Source of the DNA: an uncultured Bifidobacterium sp.
GTDB lineage: Bacteria > Verrucomicrobiota > Verrucomicrobiia > Limisphaerales > JADLHS01
Reading direction: 5' to 3'
NCBI GenBank assembly: GCA_964561105.1
Contig: CAZLOH010000023.1
Span: forward strand, 14,025-78,024
DNA length: 64,000 nt
Positions 2,624 through 64,000 of this stretch are shown piece after piece; within the stretch, counting starts at the first letter, position 1; every line of letters begins with the position of its first letter. The notes beneath the pieces are model-generated. The model was not told the origin of the DNA. It saw only the letters and a list, made by a program, of their open reading frames with translations, and searched no databases. Both the position numbers and the translations under genes were made by a program.

Positions 2624-3403
2624 ATGCCTGACTGGATTGCGGTTGTCATCTTGGGAATCATCGAGGGAGTCACTGAGTTCCTACCGGTTTCCTCCACCGG
2701 CCACCTGTTGCTGGCGGAGCACTGGCTGGGTACGCGCAGCGAACTGTTCAACGTAGTGATCCAATCCGGCGCCGTCGTGGCCGTGCTGGCGGTGTTTGCC
2801 AGTCGCGCCAGGTCGTTGTTGTTTGGCTGGCGCGAGCCAGCGAACCGCGATTATCTGGCCAAACTGGCGGCGGCATTCGTGTTGACCGCCATCGGCGGAC
2901 TCGCTCTGAAAAAGGCCGGATTGAAGTTGCCCGAAGCGGTCGCGCCGATCGCGTGGGCGACGCTCGTCGGCGGCGTGTTGTTTGTGCTTGTGGAATGGTG
3001 GCTCCGCGGACGGAAGTCCACGGAAGCTGTCTCCTGGACCGTCGCGATTGCCGTTGGCCTGTCGCAACTCGTCGCCGTTGCGTTTCCCGGGGCTTCCCGC
3101 TCGGGCACGACCATCCTGATTGCGCTGGTGCTGGGTTTGAGTCGAAGTTCAGCGACCGAGTTTTCGTTCCTGCTCGGCATTCCCACGTTGCTCGCGGCGG
3201 GCGCGAAAGAAACTCTTGACGCGCTGAAGGGTCACGCGCCACACGAACCGTGGACGCTCGTCCTGCTCGGCACCGTCGTCGCGGCAGTGGTGGCGTTTGT
3301 CGTCGTGCGCTGGCTGCTGGGTTACATCCGCCATCACACGTTCACCCCGTTCGGCTGGTATCGCATCGCCGTCGGCCTGGCCATCCTGCTCCTGTTGCGG
3401 TAG
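2624..3403 (+). CDS. uppP: undecaprenyl-diphosphate phosphatase
   Basis: VVILGIIEGVTEFLPVSSTGHLLL is the BacA/UppP N-terminal signature; the protein is a multi-transmembrane protein of ~260 aa. Confidence 0.85.
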   Translation: MPDWIAVVILGIIEGVTEFLPVSSTGHLLLAEHWLGTRSELFNVVIQSGAVVAVLAVFASRARSLLFGWREPANRDYLAKLAAAFVLTAIGGLALKKAGLKLPEAVAPIAWATLVGGVLFVLVEWWLRGRKSTEAVSWTVAIAVGLSQLVAVAFPGASRSGTTILIALVLGLSRSSATEFSFLLGIPTLLAAGAKETLDALKGHAPHEPWTLVLLGTVVAAVVAFVVVRWLLGYIRHHTFTPFGWYRIAVGLAILLLLR

Positions 3404-5838: not shown

Positions 5839-5914
<76 letters not shown>

Positions 5915-6024: not shown

Positions 6025-6099
6025 GACCCTATGGTCTAGCGGTTAGGACACCTCCCTTTCACGGAGGTAGCCCGGGTTCGAGTCCCGGTAGGGTCGCCA
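6025..6099 (+). tRNA. tRNA-Glu (anticodon TTC)
   Basis: GACCCTATGGTCTAGCGGTTAGGACACCTCCCTTTCACGGAGGTAGCCCGGGTTCGAGTCCCGGTAGGGTCGCCA has a 7-bp acceptor stem, a T-arm GTTCGAGTC and anticodon loop CTTTCAC. Confidence 0.85.
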
Positions 6100-6274: not shown

Positions 6275-6661
6275 TCAGTTACCCTGCCCGTGTGATCGCT
6301 GCCGCACCGCCAGGTAGCGGTCCAATTCGGCGATGTCCTTGAACACCGCCACGCCCGGGAGTGACTTCATGATCTCGAAGACCTCCTGGATTTGCGGCTG
6401 CAGGTTCACGAACGAAGTCTGGCCGCCGCGCTCCTTGAGGGTCTTCCGGGTACTCGAGAACACCCGCAGGCCGGCGCTGCTGATGAATTTCAATTGCGCC
6501 AGGTCAAACACGATGTCTTTGACCGGACCACCCAGCACCGGCGTGAGTTGCTTCTCCAGTTCCGGGGCGGTGGCCGTGTCGAGGCTGCCGGTCAGTTTGA
6601 CCGTGACCGCGCCCGCGCCCTGGCCCGCGATAGCTTTTTGGATTTGAATTTCAAGTGGCAT
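6275..6661 (-). CDS. STAS-domain protein (anti-sigma-factor antagonist, SpoIIAA/RsbV-like)
   Basis: VTVKLTGSLDTATAPELEKQL...IVFDLAQLKFISSAGLRVF is the STAS fold signature, with a conserved Ser in the SSAGL motif. Confidence 0.8.
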   Translation of the reverse strand: MPLEIQIQKAIAGQGAGAVTVKLTGSLDTATAPELEKQLTPVLGGPVKDIVFDLAQLKFISSAGLRVFSSTRKTLKERGGQTSFVNLQPQIQEVFEIMKSLPGVAVFKDIAELDRYLAVRQRSHGQGN

Positions 6662-6798: not shown

Positions 6799-6870
6799 GT
6801 AGCCGCGGAGGTGACGAGGCGGAGGGTTCTATTCCTTCAAGCGCTTCCGCCTCCTCACGTCGGCGGCTAC
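6799..6870. repeat. palindromic repeat family 2 (24-bp arms around GTAGCCGCCGACGTGAGGAGGCGG), intergenic between the two STAS genes
   Basis: GTAGCCGCGGAGGTGACGAGGCGGAGG (6799-6825) and CCGCCTCCTCACGTCGGCGGCTAC (6847-6870) are imperfect reverse complements with a ~21-nt loop. Confidence 0.6.
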
Positions 6871-6918: not shown

Positions 6919-7317
6919 TCACTTCTGCGTGCCGGGCCAGTAGTTCGGACGGGGCCGGGTGGCCAGGTAACGGTCCAGCGCCTCGATGTCCTTGAACACG
7001 CCGATGCCCGGCAGCGACTGGATGATGGCAAACACCTCCTCCACCTGGGGCTGCATATTGATGAACGACGCGTGGCCGCCACCGCGCGCCACCATCTGTT
7101 TGCGGGCCACCTGGAAGATGCGCAAGCCCGCACTGCTGACGAATTTGAGTTCGGCGAGGTCGAACAGCAGATCGTTGACCGGTTTGGCGAGGCACGCCGT
7201 CAACTGGCGGTCCAGTTCCGGGGCGGTCTCGGTGTCCAGACTGCCGGCGAGTTTGATGGTCACCACGCCCGCGTGCCGGGGATCGGTGTTGTTGAGGATT
7301 TCAATGGATAACGGCAT
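6919..7317 (-). CDS. STAS-domain protein (anti-sigma-factor antagonist), paralogue of 6275..6661
   Basis: VTIKLAGSLDTETAPELDRQL...LLFDLAELKFVSSAGLRIF; about 60% identical to the neighbouring STAS gene. Confidence 0.8.
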   Translation of the reverse strand: MPLSIEILNNTDPRHAGVVTIKLAGSLDTETAPELDRQLTACLAKPVNDLLFDLAELKFVSSAGLRIFQVARKQMVARGGGHASFINMQPQVEEVFAIIQSLPGIGVFKDIEALDRYLATRPRPNYWPGTQK

Positions 7318-7350: not shown

Positions 7351-8979
7351 TCATTGTTTGACGTCAGCGGCTGGGTGGAGGCGTTTGATCAGGCGCAGGA
7401 CATTCTCATTCCCTTCCCGCGCGTAGTGGATTTCGTCCAGATTGCGACGGACCAGTTCGATGCCCCAACCGCCGGGCAAATCATCATCCTCGGCTTGCGG
7501 CTTGCGCGGCGCGGCGGCGGTGGGATCAAACTCCGGCCCGTCGTCGCGGAGTTCAACGGTAAACAAATCACCGGCGTTTTCGAGGATGACTTGAAATTTC
7601 CTCCCGGAGTCCCGGCGCAGCGCGTGGTTGACAATATTGCTGCCACATTCCTCCAGTGCCAGCGCGAGGTCGAATTTGGTTTGCTCCGGCACGCCCTGCT
7701 GCGCCGCGAATTCTTGCAAGGCTTCGACCCCGCGCATGACTTCCTCCGGCGTGGCGTGCAGTTCCAAATCCATGTAGCCACCGACGTGAAGAGGTGGATT
7801 TGATGCGATGCCGCGCTCCGCCTCCTCACGTCGGCGGCTACCATTGACTTTCAACGTCAGGATAGCGATGTCGTCCGATTGCGGGGCGCCATTCACAAAC
7901 GCCCGGACTTTCTGGAGCAGGCTCGCCGTGATGGCCGGCGCGCCCTGTCCCGTCCAGGTCCCGGCATCCGCCAGCAACCGGTCGTTGCCATAACATTCGT
8001 CCTGCGGATTGAACGCCTCGCTCACGCCGTCCGAATAAAGGATCAACGAATCTCCCGGCCGCAACTCCAGTTCCGTGCGCTCGAACTCCAAGCCGGGTTC
8101 GAATCCCAGCGCCGTGCCGAGGTTCGTCACCGCCCAGGACGGCGCGCCGCCCGTCGGCAAAAGCACCGGGCGACAATGCCCGCCATTGGCGATCGTCAAC
8201 CGTCCCGACTTCGGCTCGAAAACCGCGCACAGAAACGTCACGAACATGCCGGACGGGTTGTCGGCGGAGAGTTCATCATTGAGCCGCGCGAGAATCCGCT
8301 CCGGCTCGGTCAGTTCCCGCGCCAGCAAGCGCGCCAGACTGATCGCCCGCACCATGAACATCGAGGCGGGGATTCCCTTCCCCGAAACATCGCCCAGAAA
8401 AATCACCAGCCGATCCGCCCTCCCTGCGCACACGCCGTAAAGATCCCCGCCCACTTCGCGCGCCGGCTCCAGCACCGCTCCGAAACTCACGCCATAGGCG
8501 TGTTCGAACGGCGCAAAGTCGTGAGGCAACATGCCCATCTGGATTTCCCGGGCGACCCGCAGTTCGCTGGCGATCTGTTCCTTGGCCGCGTCGCTGTAAG
8601 CTTTGGCCTTGAGCAGCGACTTCACACGCGCCTTCACTTCGAGCATGTCGAACGGCTTGGTGAGATAATCGTTCGCGCCCAGCTCGAAGCCACGCGTCTT
8701 GTTCTGCACTTCTTCGAGCGAGGACAAGAACATGATTGGCACTTCCGCCGTCTCCGGCATCGCGCGGAGGCGACGACACACTTCGTAGCCATCCAGCCCC
8801 GGCATCACGATGTCGAGCAACACCAGGTCCGGCGGCATCTTGGCGGCAATCTGCAACGCTGTCTCGCCATTCATTGCGAGACTGAGCTTGTGATCGGCCT
8901 TCAACCCCTCGACGAGGATGTCGAGGTTGGCCTTGGCATCATCCACCAGCAACACGCGGCAGTCGGAAAGCTTTTTCAT
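7351..8979 (-). CDS. response-regulator receiver + PP2C (SpoIIE/RsbU-like) phosphatase + RsbW-like HATPase (anti-sigma kinase) fusion
   Basis: N-terminal REC (VLLVDDAKANLDIL...LLDIVMPGLDGYEV...ANDYLTKP), central PP2C (GGDLYGV...FLGDVSGKGIPAS...ILYSDGVSEA), and C-terminal HATPase_c_2 (ECGSNIVNHA...GGWGIELV). Confidence 0.75.
   Translation of the reverse strand: MKKLSDCRVLLVDDAKANLDILVEGLKADHKLSLAMNGETALQIAAKMPPDLVLLDIVMPGLDGYEVCRRLRAMPETAEVPIMFLSSLEEVQNKTRGFELGANDYLTKPFDMLEVKARVKSLLKAKAYSDAAKEQIASELRVAREIQMGMLPHDFAPFEHAYGVSFGAVLEPAREVGGDLYGVCAGRADRLVIFLGDVSGKGIPASMFMVRAISLARLLARELTEPERILARLNDELSADNPSGMFVTFLCAVFEPKSGRLTIANGGHCRPVLLPTGGAPSWAVTNLGTALGFEPGLEFERTELELRPGDSLILYSDGVSEAFNPQDECYGNDRLLADAGTWTGQGAPAITASLLQKVRAFVNGAPQSDDIAILTLKVNGSRRREEAERGIASNPPLHVGGYMDLELHATPEEVMRGVEALQEFAAQQGVPEQTKFDLALALEECGSNIVNHALRRDSGRKFQVILENAGDLFTVELRDDGPEFDPTAAAPRKPQAEDDDLPGGWGIELVRRNLDEIHYAREGNENVLRLIKRLHPAADVKQ
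7774..7841. repeat. palindromic repeat family 2 copy embedded in frame inside the RsbU-like CDS linker
   Basis: GTAGCCACCGACGTGAAGAGGTGG (7774-7797) and CCGCCTCCTCACGTCGGCGGCTAC (7818-7841) are reverse complements (21/24). The region encodes the linker ...SRRREEAERGIASNPPLHVGGY... between the PP2C and kinase domains. Confidence 0.6.
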
Positions 8980-9693: not shown

Positions 9694-12600
9694 GAGTTTC
9701 TTCACCGCCTGATCCAGCCGCGCCTGTGCGTCGGCGAATGAGTAACTCTGAACGCTTTTTTCAAACTGCGGCCAGCCATCGCCAGCAAACAACGGACGCA
9801 GCGCGGCCTGATTCGTTTCAAGAAAATCCGCCGCGCTGGGGTCGAACTCCGCGAGCAACCTGGTCAACTGCGCTGCAGCCTCGCGGGATTGCGCGGGATC
9901 CACCGTCGCCGCCGGCGTCGGCGCGGGCGCAGCCGAGGCAGACGCGGCCAAGCCTAACTTCAACGCGGCCACCAACGGACCGAGCGCGGCGGCCGTCTGC
10001 TGCCTGGCTGCGTCCAGTTCGAGCGGCGAGACTTTGCCCCGGATGCCTTTCTCCAACGTGGCAGCGGCGGACTGAATTTGGGTTGCGCCGATGTTGCCGG
10101 CCACGCCCTTGAGCGTGTGCGCCAGCCGTTCGGCGAGCGCGATGTCCCCTTGAGCGAGCGCCTCGGTGATTTGCGTCACCGCCGGCCCCTGTTGCTCGAC
10201 GAACTGCCGCAACAATTTCAGATACAACTTCCGATTGCCAGCCACGCGGGCCAGGCCGTCCTTCGTGTCGAGGCCGGGAATGGTGGCGCAGGTTTCCAAA
10301 CCTGCCGTATCGCCGATTTCCAAATCGGCACTGCGCCGCACAGATGTAGCCGTCGCAGGTTGGGAAACCTGCGATACTGCAGACTTGGAAGTCTGCGCCA
10401 CCGGGGCGGCAGCACCCCCCGTCGCTCCCCTCACCCCGTCCCTCTCCCCATCGGATGGGGAGAGGGTGTCCGCAGGACGGGTGAGGGGCTTGTAAAATCT
10501 GCCCACCGTCTCGAACAGGTTCGCCGGATCAATCGGCTTGGAGATGTGATCGTTCATCCCCGCGGCGAGGCAGCGTTGTTTCTCCTCCATCGTCGCGTGC
10601 GCAGTCATGGCGATGATCGGCAGGTTCGCCAGCCGCGCGTCGGCTCGCAACCTGGCTGTGGCCTGATAGCCGTCCATGACCGGCATCTGCAAATCCATCA
10701 GCACTATATCGAACGGCGGCGGCTGCGGATCCTTGGACAAGATGTCCACGGCTTCACGGCCATTGTTGGCGACCGTGACCGTGGCCCCCGCGCCTTCGAG
10801 CAGTTCAATGGCGATCTGCTGGTTGATCTCGTTGTCTTCGGTAAGCAGGATGCGCGCGCCGCGCAGGCGCGTGGCCGATTCGCCTTCCTTGGTTGTGGCC
10901 ACAGCCTCGCCCGTTTCGGCAAACACGTTCACCAGCGTGTCCACGATCATGGACTTGGTGACGGGCTTGACGAGAAAGCCATCCAACTGCAACCGCTCGG
11001 CCTCCTCGCGGACTTCTTCACGACCAAACGCCGTGACCAGCACAATGTGCGGCGGGTGCTGCAACGTCTCGTCGCCCTTGATGTGGCGACTGGCCTGCAA
11101 CCCATCCATGCCCGGCATCCGCCAGTCCATGAACACAATGTCGTAGGGCTCGGCCGCGTCCCGCTGTTGAACGGAGGCGATGGCTTCCTTGCCCGAGGCG
11201 ACGACATCCACACGCGCCGCGATGCCAACCAGCGGTTCCTGCAGAATCTCCCGGGCAGTGGGATTGTCATCCACGATGAGCACGCGAAGCTTGGCCAGTT
11301 TCTCGGGAACGATCTTGCCCGCCCCGGTTGCGGAACTGACCCCGAGCCAGACCGTGAAATAAAACGTGCTGCCCACGCCGGGTTCGCTTTCGAGCCAGAT
11401 GCGTCCACCCATCAGTTCGACGAGCCGCCGGCTGATGGTCAGCCCCAGGCCCGTGCCGCCGTGCTTCCGGGTCGTGGACATGTCCGCCTGCGTGAACGGT
11501 TCGAATAATTTTCCCGACTGCTCCTTCGTCATGCCGATGCCGGTATCGCGCACGGCAAACTTGAGTTGCACCTTTTCCCCGGTGCGCTCGACCTGTTGAA
11601 TCTCGAGCCGGATTTCGCCCTGCTCGGTGAACTTGACCGCGTTGTTCACGAAATTGGTCAGGATCTGGCCGAGGCGCAGCGGATCGCCGAGGAGGACTTC
11701 GGGAACGCCCGCCGCCGTGTGCGCCAAAAACTCCAGCCCTTTCTCATGCGCCTTCTGCGCGGTGAGCGTGGTGACGCTCGATATAACTTCGTCGAGCTTG
11801 AAGTCCGTCGTCTCGATGTCGAGCTTGCCCGCCTCGATCTTCGAGAAGTCGAGAATGTCATTGATGATGGCGAGCAGGGACGTGCCCGCGTTGTGGACCT
11901 TGCCGACGTAATCGCGCTGCTTGGGCGTGAGTTGAGTCTTCAGCGCGAGGTGCGAGAGGCCGATGATGGCGTTCATCGGCGTGCGGATTTCGTGGCTCAT
12001 GTTCGCGAGGAACATGGACTTCATCTCGGTGGCTTCCTCGGCCTTACCCTTGGCCAGCGCCAGTTCGCGCGCCTGTTCCTGCGTCTGACCCAGCAGCTCC
12101 TGCGTGCGAAGATTCCGCAACAGCACCTCCAGACTCATTGCCGCCACGGGCAATAACTCGTCCAGCAGGGCCTGTTCGCGGCTCGTGAACGTGCGAAAAC
12201 CGGCGACCTCGAGCACGGCCAGCAACGCGTTCGCCGAGGTCAACGGGAACGCCGTGACCTGCGTGGGCGCGGCTCCACCCAGGCCCGAAGCGATGCGCAG
12301 ATAGTCCGGCGGCAGGTCCGTGAGCGTCACCGCCTTGCGTTCCCGCGCGCATTGCCCGACCAATCCATCGCCCGGTTTGAATTCGCCCGCGTCCGCCGGT
12401 TCTTCCGCAAGGCCGTACGTCGCAACACGCGACAGCCGGCCCGCCGCTTCCTCGAACGAATACAAACCGGCCACCCCGCCGCCCAGCGCGGGCATGAGGC
12501 TGACCACCAAACGTTGCCCGAAGTCGGTGAGCGAACTCGCGCCCTGCAACGCGCCGGTGATTTGCCCGGCCGTGGATTTCACCCACCGCTGCTCATCCAT

Positions 12601-16725: not shown

Positions 16726-17590
16726 CGAGTGCTGCGACGATGCGCTGCACCTGGGAGGCTTCTAACTTCGTCCCTTGGCCACGCAAGTACTTCGTGAGAT
16801 AACCGGCATTCATCACCTTTACCGGGAAGTTACCTTTGGTCTCAACATACCAACCGGGAATCGTGACTACTGCTTCGACCAAGACGGATTCCGCCGTGCG
16901 CTTGGATAGGAATTCCGACAGCCAACGAGCATTGCGCTCCGCCTGCGGGATGGTTTCAGCATCATACCCGCGGGGAAAACCCAGCCCTTTGCCATCGTAA
17001 GCGACAACGTGTTCTGGTTTGCCGTTACGGCTCCCGCGCCGGCGCCGGGCCTTGGTTTCAATCACAAATACCCCCCGAACGCCCACTGCAATGTGATCAA
17101 TATTGCCAATCTGCTCCTCTACCAAGTCGTGAAAAATGCGATAGCCTGCGTCAGCAGCCTCGTGCAAAGCCTCGGCCACCGCTTGCTCTCCCCGCAGACC
17201 GAGCCGAACATTGCGCCCTTCATCCAAACTGCGGAAGGCACGTAACACCTGCCACGCTCCCAAGCCTGCCAGCACTGCAAACAGTGCCAGTGCCAACGCC
17301 GACCACGCCGCAGGAACGTTATTGCCCAAAAACAAGCCTAGCGTAAGAGCGCACACTCCACCCGCTAAGCAAAGCGAACACGCCAGGAGAAGTTGGCCCA
17401 AAATCCGGTCCTGTAGGTTCTCAAGCCGGATGCCAAGCGAGTGGCCCGCTGGCCGCAACAGTTTCTCTTGCTGCGGCGGCTTCTCCCGGTGGCTGGCACC
17501 ACGACGCTCGATAAACCAGGCGACCAGGAACACCAGCAGGGGAACAAAGCTGGCAAGCACGATTGAAATGGTTCCAGAATCAAACTTCAT
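16697..17590 (-). CDS. membrane-anchored NERD (nuclease-related domain) protein
   Basis: Two to three N-terminal transmembrane helices are followed by the NERD signature GEQAVAEALHEAADAGYRIFHDL...IDHIAVGVRGVFVIETKA. Confidence 0.75.
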   Translation of the reverse strand: MKFDSGTISIVLASFVPLLVFLVAWFIERRGASHREKPPQQEKLLRPAGHSLGIRLENLQDRILGQLLLACSLCLAGGVCALTLGLFLGNNVPAAWSALALALFAVLAGLGAWQVLRAFRSLDEGRNVRLGLRGEQAVAEALHEAADAGYRIFHDLVEEQIGNIDHIAVGVRGVFVIETKARRRRGSRNGKPEHVVAYDGKGLGFPRGYDAETIPQAERNARWLSEFLSKRTAESVLVEAVVTIPGWYVETKGNFPVKVMNAGYLTKYLRGQGTKLEASQVQRIVAALDDKCRDLEF

Positions 17591-18168
17591 AGGTGGTAAA
17601 AGACTTCGCCATCCGCCCCGATCTCGATGACTTTCTTTGCGACCAACCCTTGGATAGTGCTATGCAGTTCGGCTGGTGTGAGCGCTCTTCCAAACAAAGC
17701 GTGGATTTGTGATTCCAAGGTTGTGCGCTTTTTGGCAAGCGTTACCTGTTTGGACTTAAAGTACGCGATGATGTGATTGACCCGCTCGGCATTTTTCATC
17801 AGCACTGGGACTTCGCAAAAAGCTGCACGCCGGGCGGCGAGCGTGCCGTTGGCTTGGAAATGACCGATCAACGCGTCAAAATCCTTATCTTTGGAGATGA
17901 TGTGAAAATAGCCATGTGCGTCCACTTGCTTTGCCGCGCCAATACACTGCGCGAGCACCAGATCCAAGGCATTCTTACCGCTCCGCCCGGTTTCCACCAA
18001 GTCCACTTGTCCGGCGTACTTGAGCAGCAGCTTTACCAAGGCGACCGGAAGGTTCTTATGCCGTTCACCCAAGACAAACGTTACCTTGACTGGCTTGTTG
18101 GCAATTCGATCCAGATCAATTTCCTGAACATTTTCAAAATCAATGAAGATGTAGTTGGTGCGGGCCAT
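17587..18168 (-). CDS. NYN (LabA-like / PIN-related) ribonuclease-domain protein
   Basis: NYIFIDFENV, SGKNALDLVL and IISKDKDF match the acidic motifs of NYN/LabA domains. A ~70-aa C-terminal extension follows. The gene overlaps the NERD gene by 4 bp. Confidence 0.6.
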   Translation of the reverse strand: MARTNYIFIDFENVQEIDLDRIANKPVKVTFVLGERHKNLPVALVKLLLKYAGQVDLVETGRSGKNALDLVLAQCIGAAKQVDAHGYFHIISKDKDFDALIGHFQANGTLAARRAAFCEVPVLMKNAERVNHIIAYFKSKQVTLAKKRTTLESQIHALFGRALTPAELHSTIQGLVAKKVIEIGADGEVFYHL

Positions 18169-31893: not shown

Positions 31894-32751
31894 TCAATTT
31901 ATCCGGACGCTCGTGCGCTCGAGCAACCACTGATAGTCCGTCGGCGGCACTGCCGCGAATCCTCCACCCGCTCCGCCTTTGATGGCCGGGCGAACCGTGT
32001 CCGGCACCACCCAGCGATGCGTCTCGATGTGTCCGTCGGCAAACGACAGGTTCGCGGCTCCGTTGTGATGGGAGGCAGGCAGATTGCCCCACTTGTCCTC
32101 ATTCAACCGGTTCATGAAAAATCCATCGTTCAACGTGTCGGGATGTTCATCCAGAAAAACGAACGTGCCCGAGGGCAGGCGGATTTCCGTTTGCTTGAAA
32201 TACTGCGCGTAATCCGGGTTGAACTTGTTGATCAACACACCCGGATCGCCCACGAGGGAATTCATGGAGTAACTGCGCGTCCGCGGACCGTTCTCCGCCT
32301 GCGCGCGGTCGGACGGGCATTTGAACACCGCCGTCTGAAGGGACAGCATCGGCGTGAGTTTGCCGCTGAGGAGATAGGCGACGTTGGTGTTCTCCTCGGC
32401 CATCCCCCAATCCATGACATTGTTCACCCAGTTCTGACGTTCAGCCCGCGTCTGGTCAATACCATGGTTGTTGACCAGCCAATCGCTGCTGTCATTGGCA
32501 TAAAGACTCCAGGCGAGGGTGAGTTGGCGAATGTTGTTAATGCAACCAATCGCCTGCGCCTTGGTCTTGGCCTTGCTCAGCGCGGGCAACAACAGCGCCG
32601 CGAGCATGGCAATGATCGCAATCACGACCAGCAATTCGATCAGCGTAAACCCGCTGTGCCGCCACGGACGGATCTTCACTCCGGGCATGGTTGCCGATGG
32701 CCTTGGCTCGATCCAGAACCGTCGGAGGTTGAATCGCGCGCAGGTTTTCAA
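31894..32751 (-). CDS. prepilin-type N-terminal cleavage/methylation + DUF1559 protein
   Basis: [23 protein letters not shown] (pilin-like N-terminus) and the C-terminal H-X9-DG motif ([15 protein letters not shown]). Confidence 0.8.
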
Positions 32752-33758: not shown

Positions 33759-33871
33759 CAAGTGAGAATAGGTAACGGCGTGCGATTCAATTCTGTCGGT
33801 TATCGTTGACTCGAATTGAAATTGCCGAAGTTCCGCGACCACCGCAAGCGAGGAAACGGCGGGATCAACCT

Positions 33872-34032
33872 GGGTGCGATTGGAAGTGGCGGTCAGGAGC
33901 GCGGCGTTTACGCCGCTTCAACGGCGGAAACACGGGGGCGATTGGCTGTTTCAGACGCACTTCCCGGACGCACCGTGAAGCAGGCTGAAGCCCGCGCCCC
34001 CTTGAGGTTGACGGCCACTTCCAATCGCACCC
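33872..34032. repeat. 24-bp near-perfect inverted repeat flanking 113 bp (MITE-like or structured-RNA candidate)
   Basis: GGGTGCGATTGGAAGTGGCGGTCA (33872-33895) versus TGACGGCCACTTCCAATCGCACCC (34009-34032), 23/24 complementary. The interior contains small hairpins (GCGGCGtttaCGCCGC). Confidence 0.55.
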
Positions 34033-34276
34033 AACGGCCAGGGAAAATGTTCGCCTCTGCGCACCAATCGCTCAAGCAGCCTGCTCAAAACCATCAACCC
34101 CCGGTAGCACGGCTCGCGCTGCGAGCCGTCGCGCCACGTCGAGCGGCGCGCAACGGGTGGAAACGTGCGCCCTCGGTCTTTCGCTTCCGCCCGCTGCACG
34201 CGGGCGGAGTCCTCGCAGCGCGAGAACTTCCACCTCAACGATGATGAGGCAAGACTACCGACGAGCCGGCATCGGT

Positions 34277-34326
34277 TGGTGGGGCGAGGCTCCCGACGAG
34301 CCGACTCGTGCGGACGCTCGCCCCAT
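34277..34326. repeat. palindromic repeat family 3 (TTGGTGGGGCGAGGCT..CTCGYGNGGACGCTCRCCCCA)
   Basis: Shares about 44 of 50 positions with the copy at 41651-41701 (opposite orientation); half-copies occur at 49578-49601 and 49782-49804. Confidence 0.6.
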
Positions 34327-34451
34327 CGCTTGGCCTGAAGGTAAGCGGCCGAATCGTCCACGGGGCCGAAGGCCCGCCAGATGGTAGCCTTGGGTTAATC
34401 GTCAAAGGAATTTGAGCGCGAAGGGGCGGCAACATCACGGGATGAAGCAAG

Positions 34452-41570: not shown

Positions 41571-41650
41571 ACCGGTTTCAACGCAAAGACGCTAAGACGC
41601 AGAGGCGCAAAGAGCGAGGAAATTTGGCGGTGGGCCGGTTCCCACTTCCG

Positions 41651-41701
41651 GTGGGGTGAGCGTCCTCGCGAGCTGGCTCGTCAGCAGCCTCGCCCCACCA
41701 A
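41651..41701. repeat. palindromic repeat family 3 copy (reverse orientation) between hisI and the DMT gene
   Basis: Reverse complement TTGGTGGGGCGAGGCTGCTGACGAGCCAGCTCGCGAGGACGCTCACCCCAC aligns with 34277-34326. Confidence 0.6.
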
Positions 41702-48794: not shown

Positions 48795-49059
48795 ACGGAC
48801 AGGTTAACCCGTTTGCCAACGCGTGCAAGCTACGCGCGCCGCCCGGAGACTTCTTCGGAACTGGAAGGACCGGCAAAAGGATCGGTTTGAGCTTTGTGAA
48901 AACCCGCGCTGCATGCAGCGGTACTACGGTCTTTCCAACCACGCCGCCACCATTACTCACCGCCCGCCGCCACGCGGGCGGATTGGCGGCACGATCACAC
49001 TCTTACCGCAAGCGACGCCCTCTTCGCGTCTCAGCCCTTCCCAATCCTTTGGTGAATTG

Positions 49060-49476: not shown

Positions 49477-49577
49477 GGCTTCGCGCAGTGTATCCCGCAG
49501 GTCACCGCGAGCAAGCGTGACGTTTTGAACGGCGGACGCGGCGGGCGCGGCGAAGAGGCGTTGATGAGATTACAGCA

Positions 49578-49804
49578 GCTCGCGAGGACGCTCGCCCCAC
49601 CGATGCGCGAATTCCGAAGTCCGAGAGCCGAAAGAAATCCGAAGTCTGAAGGCCGAATGACTACCCTTCGCCTGACAGCCTTCCGAACTTGGTCCATCGC
49701 CGCCACGAACCACTTCGGATTTCGGAGCTCGGGCTTCTTTCGGATTTCGGAGATTCGGATTTCGGATTCAACAAGCGGTCGGCTCGCGAGGACGCTCGCC
49801 CCAC
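49578..49804. repeat. repeat cluster: two family 3 half-copies (GCTCGCGAGGACGCTCGCCCCAC) bracketing a hairpin-rich interior with TCGGATTTCGGA-type microsatellite
   Basis: Direct repeats at 49578-49601 and 49782-49804. Between them ccgaagtccgagagccgaaagaaatccgaagtc opposes cttcggatttcggag...ttcggatttcggagattcggatttcgg. Confidence 0.6.
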
Positions 49805-49888
49805 GGGCGGAGTTCCAAGTTCCAAGTTGCAGGTTTGCGCCGACAGGACAGCGGCCCGGTGGACGATGCGATACTGGCTCAGGCCGGG

Positions 49889-53390: not shown

Positions 53391-55898
53391 ATGAATCTGT
53401 TCGCGCGCCGAAGCCTGATGCTGATGGGCGTCATGGGCTTGAGCGCGTGCGAGCCAGATTCCACCGGAAAGCCAAACCGCATCAGCCCCGTGAATACCAA
53501 CGCACCTGCCACCTACCAGCACACCAACCACCTCGCCTCGGAAAAATCGCCCTACCTGCTCCAGCACGCGCACAATCCGGTGGACTGGTTCGCCTGGGGC
53601 GATGCGGCCTTTGCCAAGGCGCGCCGGGAAAACAAACCGATCTTCCTCAGCATCGGTTATTCGACCTGCCATTGGTGTCATGTGATGGAACGGGAGTCGT
53701 TCGAGGACGAAAAGGTCGGCGCGTTCCTCAACGAGCACTTCGTCAGCATCAAGGTGGACCGCGAGGAGCGACCGGACGTGGACAAGATTTACATGACGTT
53801 CGTGCAATCCACGACCGGCGGCGGCGGCTGGCCGTTGAATGTCTTCCTCACGCCGGACCGCAAACCGTTCTTTGGCGGCACGTATTTTCCGCCGGACGAT
53901 CGTTACGGGCGCGGCAGTTTTCTCTCCGTGCTCCAACAAGTCGCCTCCGTCTGGCGCGAACGCGGGTCAGAAGTCGCCGCGTCCGCCGACGAAATTCAGT
54001 CCCGGCTCGAACTCGCCACGAGCGCCACCAACACTTCCAGCCAGGCGCTCTCGCCGGAAATGCTGCGCCAGGCCGGATTGCTCTTCAAGGAAGCCTACGA
54101 TCCCCGGAACGGCGGTTTCGGCGGCGCACCCAAGTTTCCCCAACCCAGCATGCCCGCGCTCCTGCTGCGCTACGCCCAACGGTTCAATGACGCCGAAGCG
54201 CAGCAGATGGTGTTGAACACCTGCGATCACATGGCCGCCGGTGGGATTCACGATCAACTCAGCGGCGGTTTCGCGCGTTACTCCGTGGACGCCCAATGGC
54301 TCGTGCCGCACTTCGAGAAAATGCTCTACGACAACGCGCAACTCGCGCAGTTGTATCTCGACGCCTATCTCGTCAGCGGCGACACGCGACAGGCCGAGGT
54401 GGTGAGGGACATTCTGGACTACGTCCTGCGCGACATGACGCATCCGGACGGTGGTTTCTATTCCGCCGAAGACGCCGACAGCGAAGGGCAGGAAGGAAAG
54501 TTCTACTGCTGGACGCACGACGAATTGTCCAAACTGCTTTCGCCCGAGGAATTCAACGTGGCCGCGCGCTACTACGGCATCACGAAGGCCGGAAACTTCG
54601 TGGATCACAGCCATCCAACGCCGTTGACGGGGCAGAATGTTTTGAGTGTGGCCGTGCCCCTCACCCGGTCTTCGACCACCCTCTCCCCATCCAATGGGGA
54701 GAGGGAGAAGCGTCCGCCATCGCGCGACAAATCACAGACTGAAGTTGCGACTGCCGCTGCCGCAAAACCCGACAACGCCCGATTGCTGTCCCCTCTCCCT
54801 TTCGGAAGGGGAGAGGGTCAGGGTGAGGGGCTTTTGTCCGGTGACTACGCTCTCCTCGCCTCGGCCAAATCCAAAATGCTCGCTGCGCGCGCTCAGCGCA
54901 TCCGCCCGCACCTGGACGACAAGATTCTCGCTTCTTGGAACGGGCTGATGCTCGGTGCGTTTGCGCGCGCGTACGCCGTACTCGGCGACGAGCAGTATCT
55001 GACCGCAGCCGAAAGGAATTTGAAGTTCATTCGCGAGAAGCTCTGGGTTGAATCATCCGCCCTCACCCCAACCCTCCCCCCCGAGGAGAGGGAGAAACAT
55101 TCCCCGCGTTCTGGCGCAACCCCGACTGCCGACAGTTCAGCACACTCACACCAATCTGCGAGCGCCCAACGGCTGTCCCCTCTCCCCGGGGGAGAGGGTC
55201 AGGGTGAGGGGAAGCGAGCCATCGGAACTCTTTATCACCGCTGGCGTGATGGCGAACGGGACAACGTGCAACTTCTCGAAGCCTACGCCTGTCAACTCGA
55301 CGGCGTCCTCCAGCTTTACGAAGCCACACTTGATCCCAAACATCTCGACTTCGCCCTCGCGCTCGCGGAAACGATGATCGCCAAATTTTACGACGCCGAG
55401 CATGGCGGCTTCTGGCAAAGCGCCGCCGGCACATCGGATTTGATCCTCCGCGTGAAGGACGACTACGACGGCGCCGAACCTTCCGGCAACTCCGTCGCCA
55501 CCCTCGCGCTGTTGAAACTAGCCGCCATCACCGATCGCGCGGATTTCCGGAAGCCCGCCGAAGCCACGCTGCGCTTGTTCTCCACCCGGTTGGAAAAAAC
55601 GCCCCAGGCCGTGCCCTACCTGATGCTCGCATTGGATTTTTCACTGGAAGAACCACGCCGCGTGGTCATCGCCGGCGCCCCGCGATCCGACAAAGCCAAA
55701 GAATTGATTCACGCCGCACATTCGGTTTACCAGCCGGACAAGGTCGTGCTGGGTAATACCGGCGCGGTGGAGGAATTCGCCCACACGTTGCCCGCGAAAG
55801 ATGGCCCGGTGGTTTATCTTTGCACGGGTCAAGCCTGCCAGCCGCCGACGAGCGATCCGCAAACCGTCCGCCGACAACTGAATTCAAAGTCAGAATAA
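53391..55898 (+). CDS. thioredoxin-domain (DUF255/YyaL-like) protein with six-hairpin (N-acylglucosamine-epimerase-like) C-terminal domain, expanded by in-frame repeat insertions
   Basis: [44 protein letters not shown] is the DUF255 thioredoxin-like signature. The protein is 835 aa, versus ~690 typical for the family. Confidence 0.8.
54657..55210. repeat. four in-frame copies of palindromic repeat family 1 within the DUF255 gene
   Basis: Copies at 54657-54712 (..[12 protein letters not shown]..), 54790-54830 (..[15 protein letters not shown]..), 55060-55094 (..[11 protein letters not shown]..) and 55177-55210 (..[13 protein letters not shown]..). Each contains a CCCCTCTCCC..GGGGAGAGGG hairpin core. 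Confidence 0.65.
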
Positions 55899-55946
55899 TG
55901 GGGTCAGAATGATGTTTCGATTATTCTGACCCCATCATTCTGACCC
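55889..55946. repeat. ~60-bp interleaved-palindrome repeat, copy 1 (overlaps the DUF255 stop)
   Basis: GTCAGAATAATGGGGTCAGAATGATGTTTCGATTATTCTGACCCCATCATTCTGACCC is self-complementary; a near-identical copy lies at 56080-56147. Confidence 0.6.
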
Positions 55947-55960
55947 AACTTCGCGGCGCG

Positions 55961-56031
55961 ATAGCAGCCAACGTAAGGAGGCTCATTCTATGGGGACAAG
56001 GAAGTCAGAGCCTCCTTACGTCGGCTGCTAC
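55961..56031. repeat. palindromic repeat family 2 copy (arms ATAGCAGCCAACGTAAGGAGGCTC / GAGCCTCCTTACGTCGGCTGCTAC)
   Basis: Arms at 55961-55984 and 56008-56031 are reverse complements (22/24) with a 23-nt loop. Confidence 0.6.
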
Positions 56032-56079
56032 GGTTTTTCCCTGGAAAAGAGAAGGTCGTCCTCCGCAACCGAGTTCAAG

Positions 56080-56147
56080 GTCAGAATAATGGGATCAGAA
56101 TTATGTTCCGATGATTCTGCCAACATCATTCTGACCCGGCCTCAGTG
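56080..56147. repeat. ~60-bp interleaved-palindrome repeat, copy 2 (overlaps the 3' end of 56126..57877)
   Basis: GTCAGAATAATGGGATCAGAATTATGTTCCGATGATTCTGCCAACATCATTCTGACCC. Confidence 0.6.
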
Positions 56148-59340: not shown

Positions 59341-60138
59341 ATGCGTCACCCGGCTGCCGAATCCGGCCGGCCCACATTCCGTGCGGGCTTCACGTTGATC
59401 GAGCTGCTGGTCGTGATAGCGATCATTGCGATCCTGGCCGCGATGCTGTTGCCGGCGCTGGCGAAGGCCAAGGAAAAAGCCAGGCGCATCAACTGCCTGA
59501 GCAATCTCCGGCAGATGGGGCTGGGCAATTTCATGTATGCCCAGGACAACAACGGGGTGTTGAGCGGTGTGTCCCGGAGTTATTACGACGACAACCTGAA
59601 CTGGATGTATTTGAGCTACGCCAGGAATCCGAACCTTTTCGTCTGCCCCAGCACCCGCAACCGTGTGCGGGCGGACAAGGTGGCGGCGAACGGCGAATTG
59701 TTCGACCTCCAGGTGCTCGCGCCGGACAAGAATTCCATCGGTTACAGCTACGAGAATTTTTGCTGGTGGCGAAAACTCTCGAGTGGTTCGCCCGAACAGA
59801 CCGACGGCACTACGGGCGTCCAGCAACGCAAAACCGAGGCGCGGGTGCAGAGCCGCGCCCACACCAAGTCGGTGGACGGCCTGGGATTGAAAGGCACCAC
59901 CCCCGGCCCGAGCCAGACCTGGCTCACGTTGGATGGCGACAACCTGTTCTTTGCCCAAAACAATCCCACCTTGTATCCGAATGACTATCCCAGCGTGGAC
60001 GACAATCACGGCGTGGACGGGGCGAACGCCAATTTCTGCGATGGCCACGCCCAATGGGTGCGGGAGAAGGGGAAGTATTATCTCACGCTCCGGGAACTCT
60101 CCCAGGATGAGGGTTTCGCCGTGAAACACGTTCAGTAA
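59341..60138 (+). CDS. prepilin-type N-terminal cleavage/methylation + DUF1559 protein
   Basis: [23 protein letters not shown] and C-terminal FCDGHAQWV (H-X9-DG-like). Confidence 0.8.
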
Positions 60139-60206: not shown

Positions 60207-63200
60207 ATGAATCCCAACTCGACCTTCCGAATCCACTTAGCGTTGCTCACCGCGCTCGCCCTGGCTGGCTCCGCGCGCGCCGTCCCCTATGCGACCTGCC
60301 TGACGAATGACGCAGGCACGGTTTCCTTCCGCCTGAATGAAAACGCCGACAACGTGAAGATTATTTCCAGCGGCGGAACCGTCACCAACGACCTCGGCCC
60401 GGGCGTGAAGGGCTTGACGGTGCAGAGCCTCGGCCTCGCGCCGGGCAACTTCAAGGTGATGGTCACGCGCTCGGCGGCGGGTGGTTACACGCAATCCAGC
60501 GATGACGCGTTCCAGGACAACGGCGTCTATGTGAACAAATTCGAGCAAGCGCGCGGGATCGCGGTGAATCGGAATCCCGCCTCGCCCGCTTTCGGTCGCA
60601 TCTACGTGGCGAATGCGCGTGGCCAGGCCGACACTTCCACTCCTTCCGGAAACCCGTTGGTCCGCACTTGTTACCAGGGCATCTACATGTTGAACGCCGA
60701 CGATACGGCCGCACTGGACACCGGGGAATTGCCCCGCACAGCCGGTCTGCCGCTGACTCCCGGGGACACCGCCTCACCCACGCGCCTGACGGTTGGCAAG
60801 GATGACGATCAGCTGTACCTGAGCGATTGGTCCGACCCAAGCGGCGGGCTGTGGGTCACTGACCCCGACGTAACCACCGGAATCAACGTGTTGGATGGCA
60901 TCGGGGATTTGAGCATGGGTTCGACCACGCACGGCAGTGTGGCGGGCGCGTGGGTCGAAGGCACGGCCGCGAGCAATTTGAAAGTGTTCACCACCGATGA
61001 AGACCTGACCCCGGGCAACAGCCTTTGGCGTTACGATATTGGCAGCACCGCCCTGCCCTTCACCGGCCCGCCGACGTTGGTGGGTTCGCCGACGATTGCG
61101 GTCAGCCAGGTCATGGATGTGGTCCGCGGCGGATCGAGCAACTATTTATATCTGACCCAGCGTCGCTCGGCCGGCACAGAAGCGAACATTTATGTCTTCA
61201 CGGAGGACGGCACGTTCATCACGAACTCATTGCTGGCCACCCGGGAATTCATGGGCAACGTCACTAACGTGGACCTGCTGCGCGAAGTGCTGGCGGCGGA
61301 CATCTCGCCGGATGGCAACACGCTGGCGTTGTTGCGCGCCAACGTGACCCCGACGGTCCTGCTCGTGCCGTTGACCAACGGGGTGTTCAACCTCGCAGCC
61401 ATGAGCGGCTTCAACATCGGTTCGACGAGCGTGAACAATCGCGACATCGCTTACGACGCGGCCGGCAATCTCTACGTGGTCAATACCTCTGTCGAATGGA
61501 TGCGGATTTTTTCCAAAGGCGGCTCCACCATTGCCACCAGCGGCACGGACGGCACGTTTGAAATCACCGTGCCGCCCGTCCTGATCAGCGCAGCGGCCAG
61601 CACGGCGGCGGCCGATGAGGCGGGCCCCGTGAACGGCCGGTTCACCCTCACCCGCGCGGGCGACAACTCCAGCGCGTTGACGGTGAATTACACGATGAGC
61701 GGCACGGCGGCCAATGGCACCGATTACTCCGCGCTGCCCGGCAGCGTGACCTTCCTGCCCGGCACCATTGCCACCAACATTGACGTGATCGTCACGGATG
61801 ACACCGAAGCGGAGTTCACCGAGACGGCCGTGTTGACGCTGGCGTCCGGGACGGGTTATGGCATCGGCACGGCCAGCGCCACCGTCGCCATCGCCGACAA
61901 TGAACCGACCGAGATCGCCTTCACCACCGGCACAACCAATGAACTGCTGGAGAGCTACGCGCCGTCCAAAGCGACGTTGCAACTGGCCCGCCGGGGATTG
62001 ATCGGCGCGCCCGTGGCCATCCAGCTCGCGTATGCCGGCACAGCGACGCGCGGCGCGGACTTTGACGGCCCGCTCAACGTGAATCTGGCCGCCAACGAGG
62101 TGTTCACCAACCTGACCCTGACACCCATCAACGACCAAATCTATGAAGGCAACGAACTCGCCGTCGTCAGTGTGGCATCCGGAAGCTACACCCTTGGCGT
62201 GACGAATCCGGCTTACGTGGCGGTGGTGGACGACGAATACCCGGCCGGCACCGTGCTCTTCACCGACGACTTCAACAGCGATGACAGCAGCAATCGCTGG
62301 GCGCTGAACCTGGCCGACCCCACCTCCGATTTCGTGGAGTTCAACTGGGATTACAGCCAGGTGGGAATTCCCGCGGCCCCCGGCACCACCGATGGCAGCA
62401 CGCGCGGCTTGCGGTTGCAATGCGGCAATGCCGTCCTGCAACTCGACGGCTTGAGCCTCTCGCCGCTCGGCGGAAATTTCACCGGCGATTACCGGCTCAA
62501 GTTTGACATGTGGATCAACTACAACGGTCCGATGCCGGATGGCGGCCCGGGCTCCACCCAGAACTTCGACGTCGGCGTCGGCACGACGGGCGATCAGGCC
62601 GTGTGGTTCAATGGCGCTTTTGCCGATGGCATCTGGTTCACCGCCACCGGCGACGGCGCGGATGGAGACGCCGACGGCGACTACACCGCGTTTGCCGGCA
62701 CCGCCGAATTAAAAGATGACACCGGGTTCTACGCGGCCGGCGTCGGCACGGGACCGAACACGGGCCTGCGCAACGCCTCGCATCCCTTCTACGCCCGCTG
62801 GGGTGGCCAGCCGGCACCGGCGGCGCAACTCGCGCTTTATCCCAATCAAACCGGCGTCGCCAATGCCGGGAACGCCGGCATGGCCTGGCATACGGTGGTC
62901 ATTACCAAGGCCGCCGACACGGTCAAGTGGCAGATGGATGGCGTGACGATCTGCACCGTGACCAACGACCCGGGCACGTTGTCCACGAATGTCTTCGTGG
63001 GTTACCAGGACAAATTTGCCAGCGGCAGCGTGTCCGACGTGCCGGAGATGTCCTTTGGGCTGGTGGACAATCTCAAGGTGGAAACCTTTACCTCGGCGCC
63101 CATTCAGATGGCGAACCTGCAAATTGTGGGCGGCAATGTGGTCATCCTGTTTTCGGGACCGGCGGAAACCGTGGCGGCCAACTTCAAGCTCCAGAGCTCC

Positions 63201-63323
63201 GCCACGGTGAACGGCCCGTTCACCGACGACAATTCAGCCACCCTCACGGATCTCGAGGCCGGGCAGTTCAAAGCCACGACGGCGGTCAACGGCAACACGC
63301 GCTTTTACCGGATCAAATTCTAG
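60207..63323 (+). CDS. large secreted protein with beta-propeller-like N-terminal region and multiple Calx-beta domains
   Basis: Signal peptide plus repeated ...NGRFTLTRAGDNSSALTVNYTMSGTAANGTDYSALPGSVTFLPG... blocks characteristic of Calx-beta. Confidence 0.65.
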   Translation: MNPNSTFRIHLALLTALALAGSARAVPYATCLTNDAGTVSFRLNENADNVKIISSGGTVTNDLGPGVKGLTVQSLGLAPGNFKVMVTRSAAGGYTQSSDDAFQDNGVYVNKFEQARGIAVNRNPASPAFGRIYVANARGQADTSTPSGNPLVRTCYQGIYMLNADDTAALDTGELPRTAGLPLTPGDTASPTRLTVGKDDDQLYLSDWSDPSGGLWVTDPDVTTGINVLDGIGDLSMGSTTHGSVAGAWVEGTAASNLKVFTTDEDLTPGNSLWRYDIGSTALPFTGPPTLVGSPTIAVSQVMDVVRGGSSNYLYLTQRRSAGTEANIYVFTEDGTFITNSLLATREFMGNVTNVDLLREVLAADISPDGNTLALLRANVTPTVLLVPLTNGVFNLAAMSGFNIGSTSVNNRDIAYDAAGNLYVVNTSVEWMRIFSKGGSTIATSGTDGTFEITVPPVLISAAASTAAADEAGPVNGRFTLTRAGDNSSALTVNYTMSGTAANGTDYSALPGSVTFLPGTIATNIDVIVTDDTEAEFTETAVLTLASGTGYGIGTASATVAIADNEPTEIAFTTGTTNELLESYAPSKATLQLARRGLIGAPVAIQLAYAGTATRGADFDGPLNVNLAANEVFTNLTLTPINDQIYEGNELAVVSVASGSYTLGVTNPAYVAVVDDEYPAGTVLFTDDFNSDDSSNRWALNLADPTSDFVEFNWDYSQVGIPAAPGTTDGSTRGLRLQCGNAVLQLDGLSLSPLGGNFTGDYRLKFDMWINYNGPMPDGGPGSTQNFDVGVGTTGDQAVWFNGAFADGIWFTATGDGADGDADGDYTAFAGTAELKDDTGFYAAGVGTGPNTGLRNASHPFYARWGGQPAPAAQLALYPNQTGVANAGNAGMAWHTVVITKAADTVKWQMDGVTICTVTNDPGTLSTNVFVGYQDKFASGSVSDVPEMSFGLVDNLKVETFTSAPIQMANLQIVGGNVVILFSGPAETVAANFKLQSSATVNGPFTDDNSATLTDLEAGQFKATTAVNGNTRFYRIKF

Positions 63324-63386
63324 GACGACGCGCGACCCCGGATAAGCGCTTAGCAGGCGCATCCCGGTTTCCGGCCGGTGGTGCTA

Positions 63387-64000
63387 GTCGCGCTGCGACC
63401 AGCCCGTCCGCGCCGAGCGGACAGAATCGGGCGGGCGGGACATTCCGACGCGCTGCTTCGCACAGTGCGCGAAGTTCCACGCTCGAAGTTGGCGCACTTT
63501 GCAGTGCCGCCTCCCAACTTCGTTGCGTGCGCCGAAGATTTTTCCGGAGCGCGACTGTGTGCGCAGCACCAGCCGCAGCACATTCGAACGTCGAGTTGTG
63601 TTTCCTCTCCCCAACCGTTCTATTAAGGCGTAGCTGCTGCGGCTGGCTTTAGCCCAGCCGCGCTTGGGTCGCGGTTCTGTCGCGCTGCCAGCCCGTTCGC
63701 ACCGAGCGGTCAAAATCGGGCGGGCGGGATGTTCCGACACTCCTCGCAGCGCGAGGAGTTCCACCGCTCGTAGCTGGCACACTTTGCAGTGCTATCTCCC
63801 AACTTCGTTGTGTGCGCCGAAGATCTTTCCGGAGCGCGGCTGTGTGCGCAGCACCAGCCGCAGCACATTCGAGAAACCGCCCGCGCTGCGGCTGAGTCTT
63901 CGACCACAGCCGCGCTCCATGGGTCGCGGTTCTGTCGCGCTGCGACCAGCCCGTTCGCACCGAGCGGTCAAAATCGGGCGGGCGGGATGTTCCGACACTC
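63387..64000. repeat. tandem array (at least 2.3 copies, runs off window end) of a ~255-290-bp unit
   Basis: Units begin GTCGCGCTGC(GA)CCAGCCCGT.CGC.CCGAGCGG.CA.AATCGGGCGGGCGGGA at 63387, 63679 and 63934. A conserved ~210-bp core is followed by a variable 40-75-bp segment. Confidence 0.8.

Follow-up and report, generated by a model that had tools for sequence, protein, structure and literature searches.

What kind of element is the tandem array that follows a Calx-beta gene at the end of a 64-kb stretch of bacterial DNA (64,000 nucleotides, hereafter the window)? The initial annotation had noticed that substitutions between the units preserve hairpin pairing, and had taken the units for a possible array of structured-RNA genes. 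We conclude instead that the array very probably consists of REP/REPIN-type palindromic repeats clustered in tandem in the genome of a member of the Limisphaerales (Verrucomicrobiota); it would thus be a bacterial repeat cluster of an ordinary, already described sort and not a new RNA gene family.

Results

The array and its assembly

The array consists of three head-to-tail units, which start at about 63357, 63665 and 63923 and have periods of 289 and 258 bp. The third is truncated by the end of the window at 64000 and the array runs off it, in agreement with the initial count of at least 2.3 tandem units that follow the Calx-beta gene and continue past the window. A 63-nt block occurs three times, at 63387, 63676 and 63934 (start-to-start distances of 289 and 258), there are two copies of a 108-nt block, at 63480 and 63765 (identity 92%), and the inter-unit junction TGGGTCGCGGTTCTGTCGCGCTGC, which joins element C to the following element A, is 100% the same at 63665 and 63920. 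By blastn, the identity of units 1 and 2 is 85% over 209 nt, and that of units 2 and 3 is 96% over 81 nt. Within the 64 kb, the core motifs occur only in the array, and they had zero matches in shuffled sequences. Tandem Repeats Finder reported no repeat in the array because the units differ by too many indels.

The Calx-beta gene (60207..63323, + strand, from the ORF list; 1038 aa; Pfam PF03160, E 7.9e-16) ends 33 nt before the array begins, and homologues of its protein place the organism in Limisphaerales/Verrucomicrobiota. An identical 1038-aa gene was found on an independent Logan contig of 8.2 kb (L001, SRR11845633), which ends 96 nt past the stop codon, 33 nt into unit 1, and is identical in sequence up to there. 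Extension into the neighbouring sequence, which had been proposed as a check, thus confirmed the junction between the gene and unit 1 independently but stopped within that unit. The locus marks a breakpoint of short-read assemblies for this organism, whose other contigs in public data, reached via neighbouring proteins, are all short.

These breaks are what one might expect if the tandem order were an assembly artefact, with dispersed copies mis-joined or expanded and the assembly graph branching 33 nt into unit 1. We consider this very unlikely. The units are not identical and carry several indels, which excludes that a single copy was simply collapsed or expanded, a concern that the initial annotation had raised itself; the junction of the gene with unit 1 is independently confirmed, and REPINs are known to form tandem clusters naturally (PMC3116915).

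Neither of the two longest ORFs of the array was on record in an exact protein look-up. The pattern GCGGNCANAATCGGGCGGGCGGGA, common to all three units, had 0 matches in genome and metagenome contig collections, and blastn of the array against plasmid and phage collections gave no match. Furthermore, no copy of the unit was found at 34 loci encoding Calx-beta homologues; at the closest homologous locus (L002, 54% identity), ordinary genes lie downstream and nothing is tandem, an absence that may hint indirectly at mobility.

The array is neither coding nor CRISPR

No protein-coding signal was detected in the array. Every frame contains stops, GC is 0.60-0.70 at all three codon positions, compared with a GC3 of 0.72-0.82 and a GC2 of 0.42-0.50 in the neighbouring genes, and a six-frame protein search of the array returned no relatives, so that the initial statement that no ORF is conserved across units proved right.

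Tandem domain repeats of 85-96 aa could have been suspected from the period of 258-289 bp, which matches Ig-like or Calx-beta domains in size. Likewise, a conserved "core" followed by a variable "tail", as the units had first been described, superficially recalls the repeat and spacer of a CRISPR-like array. The probability that we give to either of them is negligible, as the frames, the GC profile, the periods, the protein search and the nature of the tail exclude them. The period differences are not multiples of three. CRISPR arrays have direct repeats of 24-48 nt with unique spacers of similar size, whereas here the repeated part is ~210 nt long, and on this point the first reading had been right to set CRISPR aside. 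Of the core-and-tail description, the repetition is real, but the "tail" is no spacer: a long hairpin (inverted repeats I1 and I8) has its 5' arm in the "core", and the "tail" supplies its loop and 3' arm.

Each unit joins two dispersed palindromic elements

Each unit is a composite of a 5' part of ~175 bp and a 3' part of 90-120 bp, which correspond to two dispersed palindromic elements. The 5' part of unit 1 (element A+B, 63357..63533, + strand) is the most complete REPIN-like copy of the array. It carries the outer end GGCGCATCC, a GGTGG tag, the hairpins H1, H2 and H4, the motif TTCCAC and a right flank ending in GTGCGCC. H1, the left REP (63383..63403, + strand; family helix 2), reads GCTAGTCGC-GCT-GCGACCAGC; H2 (63406..63422, + strand; family helix 3) reads GTCCGC-GCCGA-GCGGAC and is degenerate in units 2 and 3; H4, a variant right REP (63456..63474, + strand; repeat family D4, family helix 5 in the model R1 described below), reads CTTCGCAC-AGT-GCGCGAAG. 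Element A+B of unit 2 (63665..63818, + strand; alignments A2 and A4) has no GGTGG tag and an H1 shortened by 3 nt, and its H4 (63740..63758, + strand), CTCCTCGC-AGC-GCGAGGAG followed by TTCCAC, has the canonical core of the family. Unit 3 (63923..64000, + strand; repeat families D1 and D3) has also lost the tag.

Element A+B aligns over ~180 nt with single-copy elements on three metagenome contigs (L128:5575-5757, L092 and L088; alignment A4), the outer ends GGCGCATC... and ...GTGCGCC included. A 19-base motif, CTCGCAGCGCGAGNNNTTCCAC, matches at least 120 JGI metagenome contigs, where our rough estimate from uniform composition would predict only a handful by chance, and the 22-nt motif of the unit 2 H4 recurs in at least 120 metagenome contigs and at 34212-34233 of the window. 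Within single soil metagenomes the family copies are numerous, near-identical and placed between genes, with five intergenic copies in 13.5 kb of contig L126.

One architecture recurs in most of the matches listed. On the left side, a GGTGG tag is followed by H1 (stem, TCGC-GCT-GCGA, stem) and H2 (GCCCGC-N5-GCGGGC); then come a variable stretch of 30-50 nt and, on the right side, H3 (GCGCCGC-N5-GCGGCGC), H4 (stem, TCGC-AGC-GCGA, stem) and TTCCACC. Alignments A5 and A6 and the pair counts show that H4 is the reverse complement of H1 at a distance of 80-110 nt and that GGTGG/CCACC closes the doublet, to which units 1 and 2 align. The family architecture therefore has a palindromic unit twice, in inverted orientation, and two further hairpins between the copies, which makes four hairpins in all. 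At the tag position (pair 7-148 in 27 copies), GGTGG is found in 21/27 and GGTAG in 6/27, the canonical tag being GTAG. Compared with this architecture, the array copies are degenerate: H3 is deleted in them (alignment A4), the tag is kept only in unit 1, and the H4 of unit 1 deviates from a TCGC-AGC-GCGA core that is otherwise invariant.

We built a covariance model, R1, from 27 metagenome copies only (alignment A6) and ran it on the window. It matched unit 1 at 63374-63484 (+ strand, 60.9 bits, E 2.6e-11), unit 2 at 63667-63768 (+ strand, 32.5 bits, E 3e-5) and unit 3 at 63923-63999 (19.8 bits, E 0.015). Its best match was a solo, complete four-hairpin member at 34100..34237 on the - strand (109.9 bits, E 1e-21; alignments A2 and A5). 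This copy of ~138 nt is intergenic, lies beside other palindromic repeats, carries the tag GGTAG and has CTCGCAGCGCGAG-NNN-TTCCAC at one end and the reverse complement at the other. Alignment A2 matches it to the 5' half of the unit, and a low-stringency comparison of the units with the window matched the unit 2 hairpin to 34210-34234. All copies in the window, namely the solo copy and the three units, are intergenic, as expected of an imperfect palindrome repeated mainly outside genes. The model also matched 48892-49002 with 20.5 bits; we rejected this stretch as a family member, as it has only an H2-like GC hairpin.

The 3' part of the units is a long hairpin, element C. In unit 1 (63546..63664; inverted repeat I8) it is imperfect, with an outer stem AGCGCGACTG/CAGCCGCGCT, an inner stem CCAGCCGCAGCA/TGCTGCGGCTGG and a loop of 54 nt; in unit 2 (63831..63918; inverted repeat I1, and seen in the folds) its arms of 34 nt have a complementarity of 82% and the loop is 20 nt. 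Its general form is GGAGCGCGGCTGTG..CCAGCCGCAGC-loop-GCTGCGGCTGG..CACAGCCGCGCTCC. Element C belongs to a second family, unrelated to the REPIN-like element. Single copies of it occur in three metagenome contigs (L111, L071 and L118; alignment A3). In L111, 60 nt separate it from an A element, and the relative orientation of the two is opposite to that in the window, which indicates that elements A and C are independent and co-occurring.

The first family flanks RAYT transposase genes

Contig L126 encodes, at 2505-2978, a protein of 157 aa that matches the NCBIfam model NF047646, "REP-associated tyrosine transposase" (RAYT), with 97.2 bits (cutoff 80; E 7.7e-28). It is homologous to E. coli TnpArep (PDB 4ER8, E 1.2e-13), in an alignment that brings the HUH and Y-x-x-NPV motifs into register, and matches Pfam Y1_Tnp weakly; a Pfam scan of the ORFs around it (a 366-aa ORF that contains the RAYT, and three others) gave no match. 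Matches of the model R1 flank the gene at 2286-2421 and 2981-3117. A second RAYT, 78% identical to the first, is encoded on contig L116 and is flanked in the same manner, at 1972-2098 and 2563-2675. No RAYT gene was found in the 64-kb window, and the transposase link therefore holds for the family, not for this genome.

Pairing is conserved across the family

The H4 hairpins of units 1 and 2, in which the pair-preserving changes had first been noticed, each have 8 bp and a 3-nt loop and show 6 differences over 19 nt (ungapped). Two are double changes that preserve pairing, C-G to T-A and T-A to G-C; a single change turns G-C into an A x C mismatch on the + strand, equivalent to G.U on the - strand, and one difference sits in the loop. 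The flagged hairpin thus behaves as described, but other helices are broken between units: the pairing of H2 (GTCCGC/GCGGAC in unit 1) is lost in units 2 and 3 (GTTCGC/GCGGTC), and the helix CGAAGTTGG/CCAACTTCG of unit 1 has two mismatches in unit 2.

Covariation statistics are not possible within 2.3 units and became so only once relatives had been found. Across 27-31 related elements (alignments A5 and A6), 96-97% of the cells are paired, compared with 22-50% in slid controls. Double changes occur at 13 pairs, and 0/500 shuffles reach the observed values. In addition, the free triplets that flank the searched core are fully complementary in 84/118 matches listed, against ~30 expected from shuffles, and the complementary triplets are of 9 types among the matches listed. 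The covariation analysis that had been named as a check was therefore passed by the family. Covariation cannot, however, separate an RNA hairpin from a single-stranded-DNA hairpin. The claim that selection acts on RNA structure and not on protein stands insofar as the array is non-coding and its pairing conserved; the part that specifies RNA does not follow.

Folding of the units pointed to one strand in the array. Unit 2 folds better than shuffled sequences on both strands (z -4.6) and unit 1 on the - strand (z -4.1). The - strand is stabler by 6-14 kcal/mol in both whole-unit folds and forms a hairpin with a GCAA loop; at 3/3 positions of the array, an A x C mismatch of the + strand becomes G.U on it. 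The stabler folds and the G.U positions would also fit an RNA or a single strand read from the - strand. Family-wide, G.U and A.C were counted at ~14 and 9, with no clear strand bias. We give little weight to the strand inference because the hint of the array is absent from these family counts.

Could each unit nevertheless encode a multi-hairpin small RNA whose folding is under selection? The fold scores, the covarying hairpins and the features of the - strand speak for it. Against it, Rfam matches in the window at gathering score were only two tRNAs elsewhere, and at E <= 10 the array, the solo copy and seven related loci gave only sub-threshold, miRNA-like hairpin matches at chance level, so that the Rfam search that had been proposed as a check offered no family. 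A scan of 63000-64000 for sigma-70-type promoters and intrinsic terminators found no site resembling either. The closest homologous locus is devoid of the array, several helices are broken between units, the strand bias is missing from the family, and the modules are dispersed, near-identical, multi-copy and found on either side of transposase genes, which is the pattern of mobile DNA. The array thus has neither an Rfam relative, nor transcription signals of its own in the scanned interval, nor conservation at its locus, and we regard an array of small-RNA genes, the main proposal of the initial annotation, as very unlikely.

Discussion

The tandem REP/REPIN-type cluster that we favour accounts for the structure of the units as follows. 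Each unit consists of a decayed element of ~175 bp, whose core is an inverted REP doublet with inner hairpins, i.e. the architecture of a REPIN, and of a second, unrelated long-hairpin element. REPINs are non-autonomous elements mobilised as single-stranded DNA by the HUH tyrosine transposase RAYT. Both elements would have landed side by side in the intergenic stretch that follows the Calx-beta gene. Unequal recombination or replication slippage would then have duplicated the composite head-to-tail, together with its junction, at least twice. Since units 2 and 3 share an identical junction and both lack the tag, we infer that the composite was duplicated and not inserted separately each time. 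Both element types are found dispersed as single copies elsewhere, and members of the first family do flank RAYT genes.

Several possibilities may be proposed for the conservation of pairing. The elements may work as folded single strands, the substrate of RAYT, or they may act as hairpins at the 3' end of an RNA. Additionally, quasi-palindromes may correct themselves by template switching within the hairpin. The units of the array, with no H3, the tag lost from units 2 and 3 and a variant H4 in unit 1, are degenerate and may perhaps be immobile now.

A selfish origin followed by co-option by the host would be compatible with the repeat cluster. In enterobacteria, REP and BIME sequences have been reported to block 3'-5' exonucleases or read-through. 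The stacked hairpins at the 3' end of the Calx-beta mRNA, or of a convergent transcript, might do the same here: no canonical terminator separates the stop codon from the array, which starts 33 nt further on, and copies that no longer have the features recognised by the transposase can still form hairpins. In addition, most REPs are sited downstream of genes, and a role as RNA elements has been suggested for many of them (Di Nocera et al. 2013, PMC3733652). However, the RNA in the sense of the gene, from the + strand, has the less stable fold, and the homologous gene at L002 is not followed by any such array. We therefore see co-option as conceivable but rather doubtful; a host-level role, for instance as a barrier or stabiliser at the 3' end of a transcript, is one that we infer only.

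A further, speculative combination is that the four-hairpin, mostly GGTGG-tagged family and its RAYT lineage are a hitherto undescribed REPIN-RAYT system in Verrucomicrobiota from soil and freshwater and that the array is an exapted higher-order structure of this system, not debris. We hold it to be unlikely as a whole. In its exapted form, the array could be a multi-hairpin RNA read from the - strand; alternatively, it could abut a RAYT gene of this genome's own just past the window, like the three RAYT-adjacent clusters of P. fluorescens SBW25.

The tandem REPIN-type cluster has close counterparts among known systems. REPINs were defined as inverted REP doublets that form hairpins, with compensatory changes on both hairpin sides (Bertels & Rainey 2011, PMC3116915). 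In Pseudomonas fluorescens SBW25, ordered clusters consist of near-identical REPINs in tandem with their flanking sequence, some tandem arrays alternate two REP types, and three clusters adjoin RAYT genes (PMC3116915). The family described here resembles the SBW25 REPINs in its hairpin-forming inverted doublets, its compensatory changes and its position on either side of a RAYT gene, which is single-copy in SBW25. The array, in turn, resembles the ordered clusters, as an element and its flanking sequence are reiterated head-to-tail and two repeat types alternate. It differs from SBW25 in the host phylum (Verrucomicrobiota, Limisphaerales), the longer unit of 258-289 bp and the window of 64 kb that has no RAYT. 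Its other differences, which set it apart from the published descriptions (PMC3116915 and PMC3733652), are the two extra inner hairpins that make a four-hairpin doublet, the mostly GGTGG tag, the pairing of a REPIN with an unrelated long-hairpin element, and the decay of its copies.

Similar considerations apply to the BIMEs of E. coli, which are clusters of alternating palindromic units, intergenic and downstream of genes, as is the array; the transposase that the family flanks on L126 is, as stated above, a homologue of TnpArep. BIMEs are known to bind IHF, gyrase or Pol I. Unlike them, with their REPs of ~40 nt and short linkers, the array has units several times longer that combine two unrelated families. 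MITEs are also short, non-autonomous and dispersed, and their terminal inverted repeats let them fold into a long hairpin; they depend on a DDE transposase that acts on these repeats, whereas the enzyme associated with the present family is an HUH Y1 transposase that acts on single-stranded hairpins.

The nearest precedent by phylum is found in the GTAG-tagged REPs. In Di Nocera et al. (2013, PMC3733652), these are described as stem-loop repeats with a 5' tetranucleotide tag that are predominantly located downstream of genes, form head-head dimers with structured spacers of 20-100 bp, build clusters in which dimers are repeated along with the adjoining DNA, and occur in Verrucomicrobia, being abundant in Opitutus terrae. 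At this level of description, the family shares the tagged stem-loops, the dimers with structured spacers, the clusters and the occurrence in Verrucomicrobia, and differs in that GTAG is the minority tag (6/27).

Altogether, these findings document a REPIN-like family whose four-hairpin doublet is unusual, together with its RAYT, in metagenome contigs of presumably Verrucomicrobiota type, and one locus at which a REPIN-like element was amplified in tandem, together with a second palindromic element. To our knowledge, REPIN-RAYT systems have been little described in Verrucomicrobiota. The findings also provide a useful caution for genome scans: compensatory substitutions in a repeated hairpin are insufficient to call an RNA gene, because REP/REPIN elements give the same signature.

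Palindromes of several families accumulate at other places as well. Similar multi-family pile-ups are found in contig L092, and the window itself holds at least three other REP-like palindrome families.

Other dispersed repeats in the window

Several palindrome families are dispersed through the window besides the four-hairpin REPIN-like element of the array. One separate family, CCCTCTCCCC-ATCGGAT-GGGGAGAGGG, has copies at 10440, 39386, 54679, 54791 and 55178, which are frequently nested inside CCCCTCACCCC...GGGGTGAGGGG. We found the same family at 490-540 and 1100-1150 of L092, a metagenome contig carrying a single-copy relative of the array element. Since this sequence family is present in both, it suggests that the window organism and the source of L092 are related hosts. 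A GTAG-tagged, REP-like family, GTAGC(C/A)GCCGACGTGAGGAGGCGGA, occurs at 6846, 7817, 13801, 42998 and 56007, together with inverted partners, and is distinct from the REPIN-like family of the array. Palindromes of the form GGTGGGG(C/T)GAGCGTCCTCGCGAGC are likewise dispersed (41649-41701, 49576-49602, 49782-49807 and 34276-34328).

The gap between two minus-strand genes at 33843-34451 is dense in palindromic repeats. It holds a 25-nt inverted repeat (33871-33895 / 34009-34033, 96% complementarity) and, at 34100-34237, the solo REPIN-like element with its four hairpins; the GGTGGGGCGAG...CTCGCCCCA palindrome family is represented there by a copy at 34276-34328. Directly upstream of this repeat cluster, a sub-threshold match to the Rfam Acido-Lenti-1 RNA was observed at 34362-34408 (-), with 24.2 bits vs a gathering score of 37 (E 0.0034).

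Longer repeats were also present. An 87-nt inverted repeat pairs 32566-32652 with 59386-59472 at 82% complementarity; because the second arm falls within the 5' portion of the prepilin-type N_methyl gene (59341-60138), this repeat probably represents a paralogous gene on the opposite strand. A pair of AT-richer 72-nt direct repeats (86%) lies within 55875-56137, each holding the near-perfect hairpin GTCAGAATAATGGGGTCAGAATGAT / ATTATTCTGACCCCATCATTCTGAC. Two divergent tRNA genes, at 5842-5914 (-) and 6025-6096 (+), are adjoined by a 119-nt direct repeat (6309-6427 / 6962-7080, 75% identity, spacing 653).

A distant RAYT and independent assemblies

At 17328-17594 (-) of L035, a Verrucomicrobiota MAG locus that encodes a homologue of the Calx-beta protein, we identified a RAYT-like protein (REP-associated tyrosine transposase) that is more distant, with 37% identity to the RAYT of L126, a metagenome contig where family members flank the gene. 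No four-hairpin family member was found near the L035 gene, and its product therefore presumably serves another REP family.

The Logan contig with the identical Calx-beta gene (L001, SRR11845633) terminates exactly inside array unit 1, its positions 8196-8239 corresponding to 63376-63419 of the window. Identical sigma-factor and N_methyl proteins place the same organism in SRR11845619, SRR11845634, SRR36080960, SRR36080963 and JGI 3300009870 as well. In every case it is on contigs shorter than 9 kb.
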